Positions 10,433 to 48,160 of a stretch of 64,000 nucleotides of DNA are shown in pieces. Positions within the stretch are counted from its first letter, which is position 1; each line of letters opens with the position of its first letter. The stretch lies in the NCBI RefSeq assembly GCF_055900595.2, contig NZ_CM148325.1, one strand, 5' to 3'. The notes below the pieces were generated by a model. The model had not been told where the DNA came from, ran no database searches, and saw only the letters and a list, made by a program, of their open reading frames with translations. The position numbers and the translations under genes are program-made.

Positions 10433-12898
<2,466 letters not shown>

Positions 12899-12915
12899 GT
12901 TCACTAAAAAATAGA

Positions 12916-12944
12916 ACGGGGCCAAATCGGTCCCGTTTTTTTTT
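12916..12944 (+). terminator. Rho-independent terminator of the glg operon (ACGGGGCC-aaatc-GGTCCCGT + T9)
   Basis: GC-rich hairpin immediately followed by nine T residues, 18 nt after the glgP stop. Confidence 0.75.
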
Positions 12945-12992
12945 GCCTTTATTTCGGAGAAGTGTCCAGAGGGGCAAGGGGACTCGGGGGAG

Positions 12993-13015: not shown

Positions 13016-14533
13016 ATGGAAAGAATAATGCAAAACAGAAAATGGATTTTGACCTCGCTGATAATGACTTTTTTCGGCATCCCCATACTGACGCAATTTT
13101 TGGCAGCGGTTATTGCCATGCTGGGGGCCGGGCTTGCCGCTATTCTTGAGGTTTGCAATTTTCTCTTTACGCCAACAATTTATCTTCTACTCAACGTCTT
13201 TATGCTGACGCTGGGGGCGATAATTCTATTTTTCTCTGGTCGCGTGTGGGCCGGTGATAGCGCACCAGAAAACAGAGAAATAGCCGTCTGGCGGCAATGC
13301 TTTTTTCTTTTACCTGCACTGTTAACTCTGGTTGGCTGGATAATCACGCTACATCTGGCAGATTATCAATTTCGCCAAATGGGAGCAGGTTGGTTGGCAG
13401 AGCTTATGCTCCCCTGGCTGGGAGTTTTGTTAGTCTCATTAGTCGGAGGTGAGTTCTGGTGGATAGTCATTATACCCGTTGGTGCGCATATTAGTTTTTC
13501 GCTGGGGTATGGCTGGCCGACCAGATATCCTTTAACCGGCACGTACGGGTTACGTTGCCGTAATTCCCTCCTGTTTATCCTTCTTATGCTTGGTTTTATC
13601 GCTGGTTATCAGGCTTATTTATATAAACAGCTTAATCCCGGCGTCGGTGTGCGTGAAAATATTGATACCTGGGCCTGGCGACCCGATAAACTCAATAATC
13701 AACTGACGCCACTGCGTGGTAAACCGCAAATTCAGTTTACACAAAACTGGCTGCGACTCGATGGTGCTACGGCGGCGTACCCAATTTATGCTTCTGCCTT
13801 TTATGCGTTGAGCGTTATACCGGAAGATTTCCACACCTGGGAATATCTGGAGAACTCTCGTACCCCCGATGCATATAACAGGATTGTTAAAGGTGATGCC
13901 GATATTATTTTTGTGGCGCAACCTTCCGGTGGGCAGAAAAAACGCGCAGAGGAATCGGGCGTCACTTTGAACTACACTCCTTTCGCCCGTGAAGCATTCG
14001 TTTTCATCGTCAATGCGGATAACCCGGTTAATTCCCTGACTGACCAACAGGTGCGTGACATCTTCAGTGGCGCAATTACCAACTGGCGTACTGTTGGCGG
14101 TAACGATCAGGAGATCCAGACCTGGCAACGCCCGGAAGACTCTGGCAGCCAGACAGTGATGCAATCGCAGGTCATGAAAAATGTCCGCATGATCTCGCCG
14201 CAGGAAACCGAAGTGGCAAGCATGATGGAGGGAATGATTAAAGTTGTTGCCGAATACCGTAATACAAACAACTCAATAGGCTACACCTTCCGCTATTACG
14301 CAACACAAATGAACGCTGACAAGAATATCAAATTAGTAGCGATTAACGGTATTGCACCGACTGCGGAAAATATTCGTAACGGCAAATATCCGTATATCGT
14401 CGATGCCTTTATGGTAACGCGGGAAAATACTACGTCAGAAACACAAAAACTGGTCGAATGGTTTTTAACGCCGCAGGGGCAGAGTCTGGTGGAAGATGTG
14501 GGTTATGTACCGTTGCATACAACAATGAAATAA
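13016..14533 (+). CDS. Fusion protein: N-terminal polytopic membrane domain (~200 aa) + C-terminal PstS-like (phosphate-binding-protein-like) periplasmic domain
   Basis: 505-aa ORF; the N-terminal part has several long hydrophobic segments; the C-terminal part carries the motif QQVRDIFSGAITNWRTVGG...RPEDSGSQTVM, which I recognise as typical of PstS/PBP-like-2 binding proteins. Start could be ATG 13016 or 13028. Confidence 0.7.
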   Translation: MERIMQNRKWILTSLIMTFFGIPILTQFLAAVIAMLGAGLAAILEVCNFLFTPTIYLLLNVFMLTLGAIILFFSGRVWAGDSAPENREIAVWRQCFFLLPALLTLVGWIITLHLADYQFRQMGAGWLAELMLPWLGVLLVSLVGGEFWWIVIIPVGAHISFSLGYGWPTRYPLTGTYGLRCRNSLLFILLMLGFIAGYQAYLYKQLNPGVGVRENIDTWAWRPDKLNNQLTPLRGKPQIQFTQNWLRLDGATAAYPIYASAFYALSVIPEDFHTWEYLENSRTPDAYNRIVKGDADIIFVAQPSGGQKKRAEESGVTLNYTPFAREAFVFIVNADNPVNSLTDQQVRDIFSGAITNWRTVGGNDQEIQTWQRPEDSGSQTVMQSQVMKNVRMISPQETEVASMMEGMIKVVAEYRNTNNSIGYTFRYYATQMNADKNIKLVAINGIAPTAENIRNGKYPYIVDAFMVTRENTTSETQKLVEWFLTPQGQSLVEDVGYVPLHTTMK

Positions 14534-14558
14534 CTTTTGAGAGAACGGAATCAGCGCG

Positions 14559-15551
14559 ATGAATAAATTCATAGGCGTTTTACTGCTAGGTGCGGTTTTA
14601 CTGGCGGGATGTGTCGACCGGGAAGGGTACTATAACAGCGTCAGGGAAGAAGAGAGTCATGGACTGACGTCTCTGCGGGGGCAACCTGAATTACGTTACA
14701 ACGATGATTGGTCAAGATGGCCGAGAGTGTACGGCGCTACAGCCTTATACCCGCTGTATGCCTCCGCGTATTATGAATTAGTACCCGAGCCAAAAGATAA
14801 GGATCGAACCTCGCTGGCCTGGCAGGCGTATGGTTTGCAACAAACCCGAACAGCTGAAGCCTACGATAGTCTGATCAAGGGTACCGCGACGGTTATTTTT
14901 GTTGCACAACCGTCGGAAGGACAGAAAAAACGTGCAGAAGAAGCAGGCGTTAAACTGAAATATACCGCGTTTGCCCGCGAAGCCTTTGTCTTTATCGTTG
15001 ATATCAAAAACCCGGTTAATTCACTTAGCGAACAGCAGGTCAAAGACATTTTTAGCGGTAAAGTGAGTCGCTGGAATAAAGTGGGCGGCGGTGACGAAAG
15101 TATAAAAGTCTGGCAGCGGCCAGAAGATTCTGGAAGCCAAACGGTTATGAAGGGACTGGTTATGCAAGATACTCCAATGCTGCCAGCCAAAAAATCCACT
15201 GTTATCGATCTTATGGGCGGTTTAATTACCGAAGTCGCCGACTACAAAAATACACCATCTTCTATTGGATACACTTTCCACTATTACGTCACACGTATGA
15301 ATGACAATATGCTCAAAATGCGCAAACAGATCAAACTGCTGGCTATAAATGGCGTTGCACCTACAGAGGAAAATATCCGTAACGGCACTTATCCGTACAT
15401 GATTGATGCTTATATGGTGACGCACGAAACCCCTACGCTGGAAACGCAGAAATTCGTCGACTGGTTTTTAAGCCCGCAGGGACAGCAATTGGTAGAGGAT
15501 GTGGGGTATGTGCCGATTCATGACGCATCATACGAATCATCAGTGCAATAA
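14559..15551 (+). CDS. PstS-like periplasmic binding lipoprotein (paralog of the C-terminal domain of the upstream gene)
   Basis: 330-aa ORF; N-terminus MNKFIGVLLLGAVLLAGC has a signal peptide with lipobox (LAGC); aligns by eye with the upstream ORF, e.g. IFVAQPSEGQKKRAEEAGVKLKYTAFAREAFVFIV against IFVAQPSGGQKKRAEESGVTLNYTPFAREAFVFIV. Confidence 0.75.
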   Translation: MNKFIGVLLLGAVLLAGCVDREGYYNSVREEESHGLTSLRGQPELRYNDDWSRWPRVYGATALYPLYASAYYELVPEPKDKDRTSLAWQAYGLQQTRTAEAYDSLIKGTATVIFVAQPSEGQKKRAEEAGVKLKYTAFAREAFVFIVDIKNPVNSLSEQQVKDIFSGKVSRWNKVGGGDESIKVWQRPEDSGSQTVMKGLVMQDTPMLPAKKSTVIDLMGGLITEVADYKNTPSSIGYTFHYYVTRMNDNMLKMRKQIKLLAINGVAPTEENIRNGTYPYMIDAYMVTHETPTLETQKFVDWFLSPQGQQLVEDVGYVPIHDASYESSVQ

Positions 15552-16153
15552 TGATGAATAAAATCAGACTTTATATTCCTCCGTTAATTCTTGGTTTTGT
15601 TATTGTGCCGTTGTTGGTGTGGCCGACGGTGGTTGCGCTGGCTGCTTCTGTTATCACGCTGAGTTTTCTGGGAGAGATACTGTTCTCTATCCCGCTCATG
15701 ATCAGGCGTATTTCACTTCTGCAATTACAACTATGGTTATCGGCTGAATATGCGCTTTTCTGCTGTGCAATGGTGGGCGTTGGTTGGCAATTTGCTCGTA
15801 TAACTCAATCTGAATTGAAAAGCAGACTGCATTGTTGGCTGGTATTTGCACCAGTTTATTTCTGGTTGCTCCTGTGGAATATCATTTTCTATGTCGCGCC
15901 AGCGAATATTGCGTTGCTGGAGAATATGCGCAGTTTCTTTCTGACAGTTGTCTGGCTCCCACTAAATTTTTCGCCATTTTGGTCTCAACCGTGGATTGAC
16001 TTTGTCGGTCCAATAAGCGCACAGCTTGGTTTTGCGTTGGGATATTATTGCCAGTGGCGTAGCAAAAATAGAAGCCAGATACGGAAGTGGAGTGAGTGGG
16101 GAACGTGCCTGAGTTTTGTTACGTTGGGTATGATGGCGTGGGCTTTGCGGTAA
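15551..16153 (+). CDS. Small polytopic membrane protein, paralog of the N-terminal membrane domain of the fusion gene at 13016
   Basis: 200-aa hydrophobic ORF; its start overlaps the upstream stop (TAATG); segment FVGPISAQLGFALGYY resembles IPVGAHISFSLGYGW in the N-terminal domain of the 505-aa ORF. Confidence 0.6.
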   Translation: MMNKIRLYIPPLILGFVIVPLLVWPTVVALAASVITLSFLGEILFSIPLMIRRISLLQLQLWLSAEYALFCCAMVGVGWQFARITQSELKSRLHCWLVFAPVYFWLLLWNIIFYVAPANIALLENMRSFFLTVVWLPLNFSPFWSQPWIDFVGPISAQLGFALGYYCQWRSKNRSQIRKWSEWGTCLSFVTLGMMAWALR

Positions 16154-16365: not shown

Positions 16366-17871
16366 TTACGACGCCAGCGACAACCTCTGCTGCGTATATT
16401 CCCCTAGCCACTGACTCACACGGGATTGTTGCTGCGCATTCAGCCACATGCCTTGTTTTGTGCGACGCCACAGGGCATCGTCGGCGCGGCGGACCCATTC
16501 GTGGTCGACCAGATATTTCAGCTCCGCTTCGTAGAACTCATGACCGAAATCCTCCCCGAGGTCGCTTACCGCCCCCGCGTTGCCGAGCAGCAGCTCGCTA
16601 TTGCTGCCGTAAGTGCGTGCGTAATGACGTGCCAGCGATTCAGTCAGGAACGGGTAACGGCGGCGCAGGCGGGCGGCATAATCGTCGCGATCGCCTTCAA
16701 TGGCACCACCCGGCAGCACGCTCTCTTTCGTCCACGCCGGGCCAATGCCCTGATAATACGGCGTCAGTTTTTCCAGCGCGTGCTCCGCCAGTTTGCGGTA
16801 GGTGGTCAGCTTACCGCCGAATACTGATAACAGCGGAGCTTTGCCGTTTTCATCATGGATATCAAGGGTGTAATCACGGGTAATGGCCTGCGGCGAATCG
16901 GACTCATCATCACACAGTGGACGCACGCCGGAGTAGGTCCAGACGATATCATCCCGGCTTAGCTGCTTTTTAAAGTGCGCGTTATACACTTTCAGCAGGT
17001 AATTGATTTCACTCTCTTCAATCTTCACCGCTTTCGGATCGCCTTTATACTCCACATCGGTGGTACCGATAATGGAAAACTCGTCCATCCACGGGATCAC
17101 GAACACAATACGCTTATCTTCGTTTTGCAGAATGTAGGCCTGCTTTTGGGTATGCACGCGCGGCACCACAATATGGCTGCCTTTGATCAGGCGAATGCCA
17201 TAAGGCGAAGGCAGATGCATCCCGTCGTCGAAGAACTGTTTCACCCACGGGCCGGTGGCATTCACCAGACCGCGTGCCTGCCAGCTGTATTTTTTACCGG
17301 TATCAATATCTTCTGCTTCTACAATCCACAGGCCGTTTTCGCGGCGAGCAGAAGTGGCGCGAGTCCGGGTAAGCACTTCACCGCCTTTACGCACCACCAT
17401 CTGGGCGTTGGCGAGTACCAGACGCGCATCGTCTACCCAACAGTCGGAATATTCGAATCCGCGCTTAATTTCCGGTTTTAACACTGAATTTGCGCCAAAA
17501 CGCAAACCGGTAGATCCCGGCAGGCTGGTACGCTTACCCAGATGATCGTACATAAACAGACCAATACGGATCATCCACGCCGGACGCAGATGCGGGCGAT
17601 GCGGCAGGCGAAAACGCATCGGGAAAGCGATATGGGGAGCCATTTTCAGCAACACTTCACGTTCAGCCAGCGCCTCGCTGACCAGGCGGAATTCATAGTG
17701 CTCAAGGTAGCGAAGGCCACCATGAATGAGTTTTGAACTGGCGGAAGAGGTCGCACAAGCGAGATCCTGCGCCTCCAGCATCAGCACGGATAAACCGCGT
17801 CCAGCGGCGTCTGCCGCGATACCAGCACCATTGATGCCGCCACCTATCACAATCAGATCTTTGGTTTCCAT
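16366..17871 (-). CDS. glpD: Aerobic glycerol-3-phosphate dehydrogenase
   Basis: ORF 16366..17886; the recognised N-terminus METKDLIVIGGGINGAGIA (FAD-binding GxGxxG) begins at the internal ATG, giving 501 aa. Confidence 0.96.
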   Translation of the reverse strand: METKDLIVIGGGINGAGIAADAAGRGLSVLMLEAQDLACATSSASSKLIHGGLRYLEHYEFRLVSEALAEREVLLKMAPHIAFPMRFRLPHRPHLRPAWMIRIGLFMYDHLGKRTSLPGSTGLRFGANSVLKPEIKRGFEYSDCWVDDARLVLANAQMVVRKGGEVLTRTRATSARRENGLWIVEAEDIDTGKKYSWQARGLVNATGPWVKQFFDDGMHLPSPYGIRLIKGSHIVVPRVHTQKQAYILQNEDKRIVFVIPWMDEFSIIGTTDVEYKGDPKAVKIEESEINYLLKVYNAHFKKQLSRDDIVWTYSGVRPLCDDESDSPQAITRDYTLDIHDENGKAPLLSVFGGKLTTYRKLAEHALEKLTPYYQGIGPAWTKESVLPGGAIEGDRDDYAARLRRRYPFLTESLARHYARTYGSNSELLLGNAGAVSDLGEDFGHEFYEAELKYLVDHEWVRRADDALWRRTKQGMWLNAQQQSRVSQWLGEYTQQRLSLAS

Positions 17872-17904
17872 GCTGCCCTCATTCACTTTCGTTAAAGCTC
17901 ATAA

Positions 17905-45559: not shown

Positions 45560-45685
45560 GTGCACTCAGTATCTACTGAATGAATACGGTTTCAGACATC
45601 GGCACCATACGAAGTAAAGTGTACTGTAAGCTGATTGCAGGCTAGCGTATCCTGATTAGTAAAAGCACACTAAAGGAATAGCTTG

Positions 45686-46969
45686 ATGCAACTTACCAAC
45701 GAAGAACAAGTACAGATTGCTCGTATAAAAGAAAAAATCCCACGCATTGCCGCACTGGATCCTGAATGTAAGTTATTCGGTTCTGAAGGTTGGAAATATC
45801 AATGGCCGAAGCCTGCCAGCGAGGCGGAAATAGCTTCCTGGGAGAAAAAACATAGCGTCACTTTGCCACGGGAATATCGAATTTTTCTTCGCTATATCGC
45901 TAATGGCGGTCCGGCACATGCCTACGGTCTTGAATCTTTAGGCGGTACAGATATTTATGGCGATATAACAAAAGAAAGCCCTGTACCGCTTTATATGACG
46001 CAGCAGGATGTTGATGTGTTGAATGCTGGCCGTACAGAAGATGATGAAGAATATAGTTTTTTTGACGGCGCATTGACCATTCTCACCCTGGGATGTACTT
46101 ATGATATTTGCCTGGTGGTGACGGGGCAGTATCGCGGAAGGTTAATGCTGACTGATGGTGATGAAGATTATCCGTTTGATTTTATATATGATAAAAATTT
46201 CCTCAACTGGTATGAACGCTGGCTGGACGATTTTATTGCTGGCATGAGTATGAAGGGTTTCGATAGAAGTTTGCCAGGAACGCAAATTCAACTGCGTGAG
46301 TGGTTTTTAACTGAGAAAATCCCGGATTTACGTAGATCCATTTTATTCTCGCTATGCCGTTTTCCACAGATAGAACCCGAAACATTTGCCCTTTGGGAAC
46401 ATGTTTGCCACACAGAGAATGATAAAGAATTGTGTGAAGAGGCATTCATAAGATTACGCCAAAAAAAAGTTTCTTGTGCTGCAGATATTTTTCGACTCTA
46501 TTTTACAATGCCAGATGAATTACGTGATATTGCTATTAAAGATCTCCGTTTTGCCTGTAGAGATAGTGTGGTGAATATTGAGGATTATATTCATTCACTG
46601 TTAATAATAATGCCTGAACTTGACGATGACACTCTATCCTCAGCTGTCTTTGCTATACGAGAAACAGAGTATAATAAATATGATACTTTTCTGCCGCTTC
46701 TCGAACGTATCACTGATGACCGTCAGCAAACATTATTGTGGGCGATGAGTAAGGCGCCTGATTTCAATGAAAGCCGAGGATTCATTGAGTTGGTATTACC
46801 GCTTTTTGCATCATCAAAGATGGAGAATGTAAGGAAGGCTATTTTGTTGCTCATTGAAGTTAAAGATAATCGTATTCCACCATTGGTTGATGAAGCTGCA
46901 ACTCGTTTCCCTGAACTGACCATTTTACGAGAAAACTACTATCTCAGGACGTGGGGACATAAGCCATAA
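45686..46969 (+). CDS. SMI1/KNR4 (SUKH-1)-like domain protein with C-terminal helical-repeat region; accessory gene
   Basis: 427-aa ORF (ATG 45686 with AGGAA 8 nt upstream); motif WEKKHSVTLPREYRIFLRYIANGG and downstream FFDGALTILTLG...GRLMLTDGDEDYPF match the SMI1/KNR4 signature as I recall it; GC content visibly lower than the flanking genes. Confidence 0.7.
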   Translation: MQLTNEEQVQIARIKEKIPRIAALDPECKLFGSEGWKYQWPKPASEAEIASWEKKHSVTLPREYRIFLRYIANGGPAHAYGLESLGGTDIYGDITKESPVPLYMTQQDVDVLNAGRTEDDEEYSFFDGALTILTLGCTYDICLVVTGQYRGRLMLTDGDEDYPFDFIYDKNFLNWYERWLDDFIAGMSMKGFDRSLPGTQIQLREWFLTEKIPDLRRSILFSLCRFPQIEPETFALWEHVCHTENDKELCEEAFIRLRQKKVSCAADIFRLYFTMPDELRDIAIKDLRFACRDSVVNIEDYIHSLLIIMPELDDDTLSSAVFAIRETEYNKYDTFLPLLERITDDRQQTLLWAMSKAPDFNESRGFIELVLPLFASSKMENVRKAILLLIEVKDNRIPPLVDEAATRFPELTILRENYYLRTWGHKP

Positions 46970-47006
46970 ATTAATGGTTCAGAAATGATCTAACGCGGAG
47001 AAAAAT

Positions 47007-47537
47007 ATGATCAGGGAACATATTCAGCAAGCGATAAATAATAGGTTAGCCTTTGATGGCCCATTCAATGTTGTTCCTGAACCTGCAAGCACTGCGTTTG
47101 ATAGCCGGATCCCGACATTGAAAAACGGTGTCTGGCAGAAGGCCAGCCCTATGTTGCAGGCGCGTTTTGCACATTGTGGACGTTGGTTAAGCGCTACACA
47201 TGGAAGCTGGCTAAGTATAAGTGACATGGAAACGCTTTGGCAGGAACACATAGAAGATACGTTTCTTGATGAAATCAAAATGAATGCTGTAGCTTCAAGT
47301 GATAATTGGGATAACCATGCCTTGGGACTATTTCGTTCTCATCGCCTGTCACTTTTTGCCGGTAGTGATTACAGTTATGAAATGGTTTTTCTCCTTTGGC
47401 TAGATAGTACCGTTGAGCCAGAGGTCTGGGTTTATGACTGCAATGGGGAATCACGTTATAAAGATCTTAATGATTACCTGAATGCATATATTAATGATGA
47501 CGTAAGCGCCTGTGAGTGCTCCTGGCGAGTAGAATGA
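47007..47537 (+). CDS. Small hypothetical protein, possibly SUKH-superfamily-like; accessory gene
   Basis: 176-aa ORF with GCGGAG ribosome-binding site; C-terminal segment LFAGSDYSYEMVFLLWLDSTVEPEVWVYDCNGESRYKDLNDYLNAYI resembles the C-terminal half of SUKH-type immunity domains (weak, by eye). Confidence 0.6.
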   Translation: MIREHIQQAINNRLAFDGPFNVVPEPASTAFDSRIPTLKNGVWQKASPMLQARFAHCGRWLSATHGSWLSISDMETLWQEHIEDTFLDEIKMNAVASSDNWDNHALGLFRSHRLSLFAGSDYSYEMVFLLWLDSTVEPEVWVYDCNGESRYKDLNDYLNAYINDDVSACECSWRVE

Positions 47538-48160
47538 ATAGCCCCCCTTGCCCCTTTGATCCACAAACCGCACATTACCTCGGCACAGTGCAAATCCACT
47601 ACACCCAAACCGCCTTCAACGCTGCCGTTAAGCATTATACCTGTTACATTAAAAAGCGTTTTAAAGGGTTTAAATGGGGAATCCGAACCGCTGGCTTATT
47701 GGCTATACTGCCCATGATCCCACAATGGTTGAAACCTTCTCATGACTTTAAACTCAACGCAATCAGTACGTTAATTCTTCTATTAATGTTGCCACTCCTC
47801 TTATCAATGTTCCTGTTAATCAGCAGAAGAATTAACGATTTTAAGTCAAAAACAAAGCAAGTTACTTTTACGAAACCCGTGCGTTATGCGTTTTATTTCG
47901 AGGGGATTGTTTTTTATGAATCTCATCAGCAGGGCATACTTCGCTGGGAAGATTTTTATAGCATTGAGTATGAAGAAGATTATTTGTGGCTTTTTCTGCA
48001 TTTACCGAAGAGTTGTCCCAGAGAAGCGACGAAAGCGTTTTGCGATATTTTCATTCCCACCAGTGCGATAAAAGCGCAGCCTGAACTGGATACGTTTTTT
48101 CGTGAAACACGCCACTCGCTGGATTATCTGTTTGTCCCGTTTAATTCTGACAGAAAATAA
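47534..48160 (+). CDS. Two-helix membrane protein with a C-terminal domain resembling YcxB-like / bacterial PH-like domains; accessory gene
   Basis: ORF 47516..48160; the probable ATG 47534 overlaps the upstream stop in an ATGA (translational coupling); two hydrophobic helices (LLAILPMIPQWL, ISTLILLLMLPLLLSMFLLI) are followed by a soluble ~100-aa domain. Confidence 0.55.
   Translation: MNSPPCPFDPQTAHYLGTVQIHYTQTAFNAAVKHYTCYIKKRFKGFKWGIRTAGLLAILPMIPQWLKPSHDFKLNAISTLILLLMLPLLLSMFLLISRRINDFKSKTKQVTFTKPVRYAFYFEGIVFYESHQQGILRWEDFYSIEYEEDYLWLFLHLPKSCPREATKAFCDIFIPTSAIKAQPELDTFFRETRHSLDYLFVPFNSDRK

Follow-up and report, generated by a model that had tools for sequence, protein, structure and literature searches.

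We analysed a window of 64,000 nucleotides of Escherichia coli DNA (contig NZ_CM148325.1 of RefSeq assembly GCF_055900595.2), and the present study concerns a unit of three genes that sits in it between glgP and the convergently transcribed glpD. The query was 100% identical to strain Z0117EC0005. The three open reading frames (ORFs) of the unit are co-directional and all lie on the (+) strand. ORF1 (13016-14533; 505 aa as the longest ORF) has an N-terminal polytopic transmembrane (TM) module fused to a C-terminal PBP_like_2 domain, which is a periplasmic binding protein (PBP) domain resembling PstS. ORF2 (14559-15551; 330 aa) is a lipoprotein with a binding domain only, and ORF3 (15551-16153; 200 aa) is a stand-alone TM module. 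ORF1 and ORF2 are separated by a gap of 25 bp, and the start of ORF3 overlaps the stop of ORF2 (TAATG). A hairpin with an 11-pair stem and a T-run, resembling an intrinsic terminator, follows glgP on the (+) strand (12913-12949) and sets the three-gene unit apart from the glg operon. RefSeq labels ORF1 and ORF2 as PstS family phosphate ABC (ATP-binding cassette) transporter substrate-binding proteins and ORF3 as a hypothetical protein.

The TM module of ORF1 covers approximately residues 5-215 (13028-13660) and scored 262 bits against a hidden Markov model (HMM) of the N-terminal modules of fused proteins. Its most conserved motif (W148 ... P154 ... F161-x-L163-G164-Y) is encoded at 13457-13510, and the PBP_like_2 domain at 13751-14470. 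The start of ORF1 is ambiguous (13016-13030): the longest ORF begins with the ATG at 13016, the RefSeq start is the ATA at 13025, which gives 502 aa, and another ATG is found at 13028. Relatives of the protein begin with MMQNRKW or MQNRKW, which favours the ATG at 13028.

The binding domain and the membrane module

The PBP_like_2 family (PF12849) was matched at residues 246-485 of ORF1 (Pfam, E 3.9e-30). The initial annotation had estimated by eye that ORF2 is about 60% identical to the ORF1 binding domain. Pairwise alignment of ORF1 residues 224-501 with ORF2 residues 30-321 bore this out, with 57% identity over 292 aa (E 3e-118). The ORF1 domain and ORF2 also align with the solved PstS proteins 4n13 and 4q8r (E 1e-16 to 1e-15), and the R...SGS motif is kept and aligns with the phosphate-binding R...SG(S/T) of these two proteins. 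The R...S-G-S residues are conserved while other residues of the phosphate site appear changed; the N-terminal part of the classic site is presumably altered, with GATA in place of GSTT.

ORF2 has a signal peptide with the lipobox L-A-G-C at residues 15-18, which was read from the translation (MNKFIGVLLLGAVLLAGC) and fits the pattern [LVI][ASTVI][GAS]C; the ORF2 orthologues carry TAGC or ISGC at this site. The residue after the lipid-modified cysteine is valine, not aspartate, and under the Lol '+2 rule' this valine predicts that ORF2 would be sorted to the outer membrane. The likeness between LGFIAGY and LLAGC, a very short stretch, suggests that the ORF2 signal peptide may go back to the final TM helix of a fused precursor.

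Our pairwise comparisons of ORF3 with the membrane part of ORF1 were weak. BLASTP gave an E value of 0.073, which is not significant, and neither a collinear Smith-Waterman alignment (p ~0.02 against 2000 shuffles) nor a pair of profiles built from Escherichia sequences only (P 0.044) was counted as significant. The identity between the two TM modules is 23.5%. This weak signal can be explained by the much faster divergence of the TM module compared with the binding domain. In the fused relatives the TM part always diverges faster, and PBP identities of 57-60% correspond to TM identities of 30-34%.

A search based on ORF2 showed that the fused architecture of ~500 aa is widespread, and a deep profile was built from 74 diverse N-terminal modules of fused relatives found through PBP-based searches. 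When this profile was aligned with the ORF3 family by hhalign, the probability was 97.9% (E 6e-13) over 173 collinear columns, with ORF3 1-180 aligned to ORF1 4-180. The score of the real pair was 83.3, compared with 19.8 for the reversed profile, at most 19.1 for 32 column shuffles and at most 36 for 20 block shuffles. A second, independent set, made up of 25 modules of species-representative genomes, confirmed this (95.9%, E 6e-9). Plain hmmsearch finds ORF3 at 41 bits, and among the six-frame ORFs of the window ORF3 was the sole match besides ORF1 (E 3.8e-12; next best 0.12). In the reverse direction, a whole-library search with an HMM of the ORF3 family returned 41 matches, all Escherichia-like or fragments, and no fused relatives.

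The two modules also agree in their layout. The hydrophobic segments of ORF3 match the ORF1 positions (12-39, 56-77, 98-113, 130-140, 151-161, and 185-196), and the protein ends four residues past the last of them. Of the 18 residues that the fused modules have in common, ORF3 retains 12, and with them the W...P......F.LG motif, which is encoded at 15992-16048 on the (+) strand (W148 ... P154 ISAQLG F161 A L163 G164 YY). The motif flagged in the initial annotation (PVGAHISFSLGY / PISAQLGFALGY) is in fact the most conserved stretch of the family: in fused modules of several phyla its residues are present at W 20/25, P 21/25, F 24/25, L 21/25, and G 22/25, and in TM-only genes at W 6/8, P 6/8, F 8/8, L 5/8, and G 8/8. 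On the strength of these profiles, ORF3 is a remote but genuine homologue of the ORF1 TM module. The resemblance that had first been noticed is thus confirmed by deep profiles with clean shuffle controls, and the pairwise significance by which it was to be judged did not appear.

It could be argued that ORF3 resembles ORF1 only through the composition of hydrophobic proteins, or that ORF3 is a decaying pseudogene fragment. The weak pairwise statistics and the many truncated copies of both genes in the databases would fit this idea. However, the profile-profile E value lies far from the shuffled, reversed and block-shuffled controls (none above 36 score units), the result was replicated with independent sequences, ORF3 is the only extra match in the 64 kb, and the hydrophobic segments stand at identical positions. 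Moreover, the ratio of non-synonymous to synonymous substitution rates (dN/dS) is ~0.2 over dS values up to 1.0, and 3828 genomes have an uninterrupted frame. We regard this explanation as very improbable.

Six hydrophobic segments are conserved across the family in the TM module, and loops rich in Lys and Arg are found at the N-terminus and at 75-96 and 162-184. The family-averaged hydropathy and the K+R counts fit an N-in, C-out topology, which would place the binding domain in the periplasm.

The fused architecture and the glgP-glpD slot

We surveyed one genome per species with an alignment of the PBP domain, which confirmed 295 loci, and 79 of them were retrieved for analysis. Local HMM mapping found the fused TM and PBP form in Enterobacterales, Betaproteobacteria, Campylobacteraceae, a Coriobacteriales metagenome-assembled genome (MAG) and Sebaldella (Fusobacteriota). 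As this fusion in cis is conserved across phyla, there is good reason to think that the TM module and the binding domain act jointly. The simplest reading of these sequences is that the fused form is ancestral.

Outside Enterobacteriaceae the gene is set among unrelated housekeeping genes (purB/phoP, ubiU/ubiV, araJ, and an L31 gene), and neither ABC permease or ATPase genes nor conserved neighbours were found beside it in the 10 distant-taxon loci scanned. Likewise, no ABC genes, including pstC, pstA and pstB, are present in the neighbourhood of the glgP-glpD locus, which is the part of the genome to which this result applies. The TM module belongs to no Pfam family at ORF1 residues 1-215; none of 29 diverse modules was matched (E <= 0.001), no Pfam match was obtained for ORF3, and the module has no relative among the solved structures of the PDB. 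PADLOC gave no match for the ORF1 N-terminal part or for ORF3.

In Bacillota and Treponema, the relatives (L034-L087 in our numbering of loci, e.g. L040 5623-6774) have a shorter hydrophobic N-terminus of ~100 aa, in which the TM-module HMM is silent. A single hydrophobic anchor is found in Polaromonas (L045), and a signal peptide in a Zoogloeaceae MAG (L085). The PBP subfamily seems always to be tethered or secreted, by differing means.

The slot between glgP and glpD in Enterobacteriaceae has a graded range of contents. It may hold one fused gene (L016, L018, L023, L025) or two tandem fused genes (L019, Intestinirhabdus). A fused gene is found together with a frameshifted second fused copy in L014 (K. 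spallanzanii), with a 33-residue relic of the PBP C-terminus in L008 (K. oxytoca), and with two free PBPs in L091 (E. coli TA054). In L010 (Pseudocitrobacter cyperus), a lipoprotein PBP is accompanied by a 351-aa protein with an intact TM module and an internally deleted, decayed PBP. The window and L011 have a fused gene, a lipoprotein PBP and a TM-only gene, and in L003 and L013 the fused gene is accompanied by two soluble proteins, p236 and p255, and a TM-only gene. No relics of PBP-coding sequence were found in a search downstream of ORF3 in the window.

Two side observations concern the P. cyperus and TA054 loci. The last ~39 residues of the Pseudocitrobacter protein with the deleted PBP (L010 7002-8057) are near-identical to the C-terminus of the adjoining lipoprotein PBP (WFLSPQGQQLVQDVGYVP), which suggests gene conversion or recombination between tandem paralogues. 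Secreted proteins of 141-147 aa made of 'RD.NGN..G' repeats flank the PBP genes in both species (L010 8216-8659; L091 4987-5412 and 10636-11064).

In neighbour-joining (NJ) trees, the free lipoprotein PBPs fall together (98% bootstrap) in a single clade that is nested in the fused genes of Enterobacteriaceae (100%). Another clade, old and distinct from this one, unites the TM-only genes of Escherichia with that of Superficieibacter (99-100% bootstrap). The TM-only gene of a Campylobacteraceae MAG groups with its own adjacent fused gene (76-83%), which indicates that it arose independently.

The separate clades of lipoprotein PBPs and TM-only genes, together with the intermediates in the slot, argue that ORF2 and ORF3 come from different copies. 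The three genes are probably paralogues, produced by duplication of a fused gene and by the loss of one domain from each of two copies, with ORF1 as a self-contained device of the cell envelope. The ancestral gene would have encoded a polytopic inner-membrane module tethered to a periplasmic PstS-like (PBP_like_2) domain, a canonical form that ORF1 would have kept. In the glgP-glpD slot of Enterobacteriaceae this gene may have been repeatedly duplicated in tandem, and copies would then have lost either domain. In the ORF2 lineage the membrane module would have disappeared and a lipoprotein signal peptide would have been acquired, and in the ORF3 lineage it would be the binding domain that disappeared. 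ORF2 and ORF3 would thus descend from different copies and not be the halves of one gene.

The initial annotation had described the locus as a fused and a split version of one two-part unit. Both domains are indeed present fused, in ORF1, and separate and in reversed order, in ORF2 and ORF3. However, the splitting of one gene into two was not supported. Fission would give the TM module first and the PBP second, whereas the observed order is PBP and then TM. The comparison of homologous loci that it had proposed also found both fused and separate forms; its intermediates show the loss of domains after duplication.

In terms of function, the periplasmic domain of ORF1 may capture an oxyanion or a ligand bearing a phosphoryl group. 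It could act in cis on its own membrane module, so that uptake or signalling would be performed by one polypeptide with no ABC permease or ATPase. ORF3 may keep the intrinsic activity of the module with no need of ORF2, and it may also accept a binding domain in trans.

Occurrence in E. coli and the pairing of ORF2 with ORF3

We counted the genes among 5426 complete E. coli genomes at a coverage of at least 80%. ORF1 was present in 3347 genomes, ORF2 in 884, the ORF3-type gene in 3828, and the whole ORF1-ORF2-ORF3 arrangement in 881. The p236-p255 cassette was found in 2278 genomes (3021 with any part of it). About 77% of the ORF3-type genes have no ORF2 and are placed after p255, and because of this ORF2 and ORF3 are not an obligate pair. 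The free genes being no obligate pair, the Rosetta-stone inference rests on the fused form only. Both free genes are under purifying selection, with dN/dS of 0.09-0.12 for ORF2 and 0.17-0.26 for ORF3, the latter at dS up to ~1.0.

One alternative to duplication with domain loss is the Rosetta-stone explanation, in which ORF2 and ORF3 together are a two-gene ORF1 and the lipoprotein docks on ORF3 in trans. Both genes are homologous to parts of ORF1 and both are under purifying selection, the overlap of the ORF2 stop with the ORF3 start suggests translational coupling, and ORF3 accompanies ORF2 in 881 of the 884 E. coli genomes. In Pseudocitrobacter, too, the ORF2 orthologue precedes a TM-module gene, with an overlap of 4 nt. 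However, the gene order is reversed. Besides the E. coli majority after p255, the TM-only gene of Superficieibacter follows p236-p255. No TM-only gene lies within 6-8 kb of the free PBPs in Salmonella and in E. coli TA054, and the valine after the lipidated cysteine predicts an outer-membrane location for ORF2. The co-occurrence of ORF2 and ORF3 can be explained by their physical linkage in one haplotype. We consider this explanation rather unlikely, though ORF2 and ORF3 may form a functional partnership in trans in the window-type haplotype, where they are tightly joined and completely linked. The initial annotation had taken the locus as an argument that the membrane and binding domains interact physically. 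For ORF2 and ORF3 as neighbours this was not supported, with ORF3-type genes in 3828 genomes and ORF2 in 884.

Another alternative looks to the cassette. ORF3-type proteins might have given up any role with binding proteins and work with the cytoplasmic p236 and p255 that usually precede them, for example as a membrane partner or a protective factor of a variable accessory island, and the adjacency to ORF2 in the window strain would then be an accident of cassette replacement. The order p236, p255, TM-only gene is common to most E. coli and to Superficieibacter. In strain A26 the slot lacks a PBP gene, and fimbrial genes, p236, p255 and ORF3 are present. An intact ORF1 is missing from at least 481 of the genomes that retain ORF3. 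At its N-terminus p236 is similar to PRK09781 (NF007301), one cassette gene is called 'YbbD family protein' by NCBI, and a 139-aa neighbour in Klebsiella has a YbbD_head domain. The free PBPs of Salmonella are arrayed with an Ntox34 fragment and HEAT-repeat genes, as is typical of toxin/immunity islands. However, neither p236 nor p255 gave a match in Pfam or PADLOC, no toxin gene is found in the slot, some loci have the cassette but not the TM-only gene (L020, L021, L008, L014), and ORF3 keeps the core motif of the PBP-coupled module. We judge this possibility to be improbable.

Some details of these neighbours may be added. The cassette lies at 5747-7227 in L003 and is also found in L005, L008, L013, L014, L020, L021 and L024. 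The two genes follow the fused gene in Escherichia, Klebsiella, Pseudocitrobacter and Superficieibacter, and they usually precede the TM-only gene. In Salmonella enterica (L006/L007 3285-12181), two free lipoprotein paralogues of ORF2 stand in a one-directional array of small genes, among them those for an Ntox34 toxin fragment of 67 aa and for a protein with HEAT repeats. This array resembles an orphan toxin/immunity island and could hint at a non-transport role of the free binding proteins.

Several points weigh against the reading that we prefer, namely duplication with domain loss around a self-contained ORF1. The full arrangement in 881 of the 884 genomes with ORF2 and the stop-start overlap are among them. 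The PstS phosphate site appears to be retained only in part, and the curated PstS threshold was not reached, as the scores against TIGR02136 were 119 (ORF1) and 121 bits compared with a cut-off of 206.6; another NCBIfam PstS model, TIGR00975, gave 17 bits compared with a cut-off of 205. AlphaFold2 produced poor models, with a predicted local distance difference test (pLDDT) of 40 for ORF1 (single sequence) and 49 for ORF3 (shallow alignment), and these give the TM fold and the docking no structural support. The function is entirely inferred, and the literature searched contained no description of the family, no ligand and no phenotype. The trees were made by NJ from sequences that are short and evolve fast, and in them the lipoprotein PBP clade has a weakly placed sister group (27%). 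An orthology between ORF3 and the Pseudocitrobacter protein with the deleted PBP had been considered and was dropped, as its bootstrap was only 10-20%. Because of these weak nodes, the exact parent copies of ORF2 and ORF3 cannot be named.

We also considered whether the locus is hyper-polymorphic, and this idea was withdrawn. The flanking glgP (10451-12898) and glpD (16366-17886) also show dS of ~0.2 between the window strain and strain AR436, and the window strain is therefore simply a divergent E. coli lineage. The 3.6-kb query has a best match of at least 95% identity in only 18 records. Two allele types of ORF3 differ by dS of ~1, which is the only split that exceeds the flanks.

Elsewhere in the window, three further co-directional ORFs of 428, 176 and 214 aa are found on the (+) strand at 45683-48160, in its only low-GC stretch (GC 0.41 compared with ~0.52 in the window). 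They matched no NCBIfam or PADLOC family, and the stretch is probably a small acquired island.

Origin of yzgL and comparison with known systems

The E. coli K-12 pseudogene yzgL can be explained from this locus. It is the product of a deletion of the segment that corresponds to 13250-16093 of the window ((+) strand), at an 8-bp microhomology (942-949 of the K-12 locus, L004). In yzgL, ORF1 codons 1 to ~78 run out of frame into the final 60 nt of a window-type ORF3. In an even-step sample of ranked matches, 7 of the 30 rows were of this deletion type, from which roughly a quarter of E. coli genomes would appear to have it. In the literature searched yzgL appears once, listed as 2-fold repressed by Cpx.

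Our analysis defines an uncharacterised architecture, a polytopic module with a PstS-like domain, which most E. coli have and which extends over several phyla. Current annotation wrongly makes it a component of a phosphate ABC transporter, though there are no transporter genes beside it. Versions with both domains, with the binding domain only and with the membrane module only occur naturally, all under selection, and they could serve to study how a binding domain is coupled to a non-ABC membrane protein. We venture, as a speculative suggestion, that the module of ~200 residues is an undescribed family which, with a tethered or free PstS-like domain, would make a binding-protein-dependent device for uptake or sensing with no need of ABC or TRAP (tripartite ATP-independent periplasmic) components, and that ORF3 might be its naturally 'unplugged' membrane half. 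If this is true, ORF3 would give a ready-made two-component version for experiments. Two cautions of method also follow. Pairwise alignment would wrongly reject a hunch that is correct at the level of the motif, and the logic of fusion and fission reads too much into a locus that is better explained by duplication and reciprocal domain loss.

The Pst importer is one of the closest known systems. The ORF1 C-terminal domain and ORF2 match PstS/PBP_like_2 (PF12849) and share the anion-binding R...SG(S/T) motif. However, both fall below the TIGR02136 cut-off, no pstCAB genes are near the examined loci, and the ORF1 domain is tethered to a polytopic module. Fusions of a substrate-binding protein with a permease, of the OpuA/GlnPQ type, are similar in logic only: one polypeptide carries both a binding domain and a membrane domain, and the ligand is captured and delivered in cis. 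The present proteins differ from them in that the module is N-terminal and belongs neither to the ABC permeases nor to another Pfam family, and there is no ATPase gene.

PstS has been reported to signal to the chemoreceptor CtpL, that is, as a solute-binding protein acting on a membrane receptor (review PMC8050422). The point of likeness is that the target of a PBP_like_2 protein is there a non-transporter membrane protein, and the system may be a model for a sensing role. However, receptors of this type have recognisable cytoplasmic signalling domains, whereas the present module stops at the membrane and lacks an output domain.

The history proposed here can be compared with 'permutation by duplication', in which domains are rearranged through tandem duplication and later terminal losses, and to which the tandem A-B A-B copies (L019, L014) and the derived B-then-A order in the window are similar. 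It differs from this scheme and from Rosetta-stone pairs in that the two derived genes stay separate and form no obligate pair across genomes. Finally, yzgL (b3427) of E. coli K-12, annotated as an uncharacterised protein or a pseudogene, differs from the window locus by the loss of 2.84 kb, which took away ORF2 completely and the greater part of both ORF1 and ORF3, and what is left of it is a remnant of the three-gene unit.

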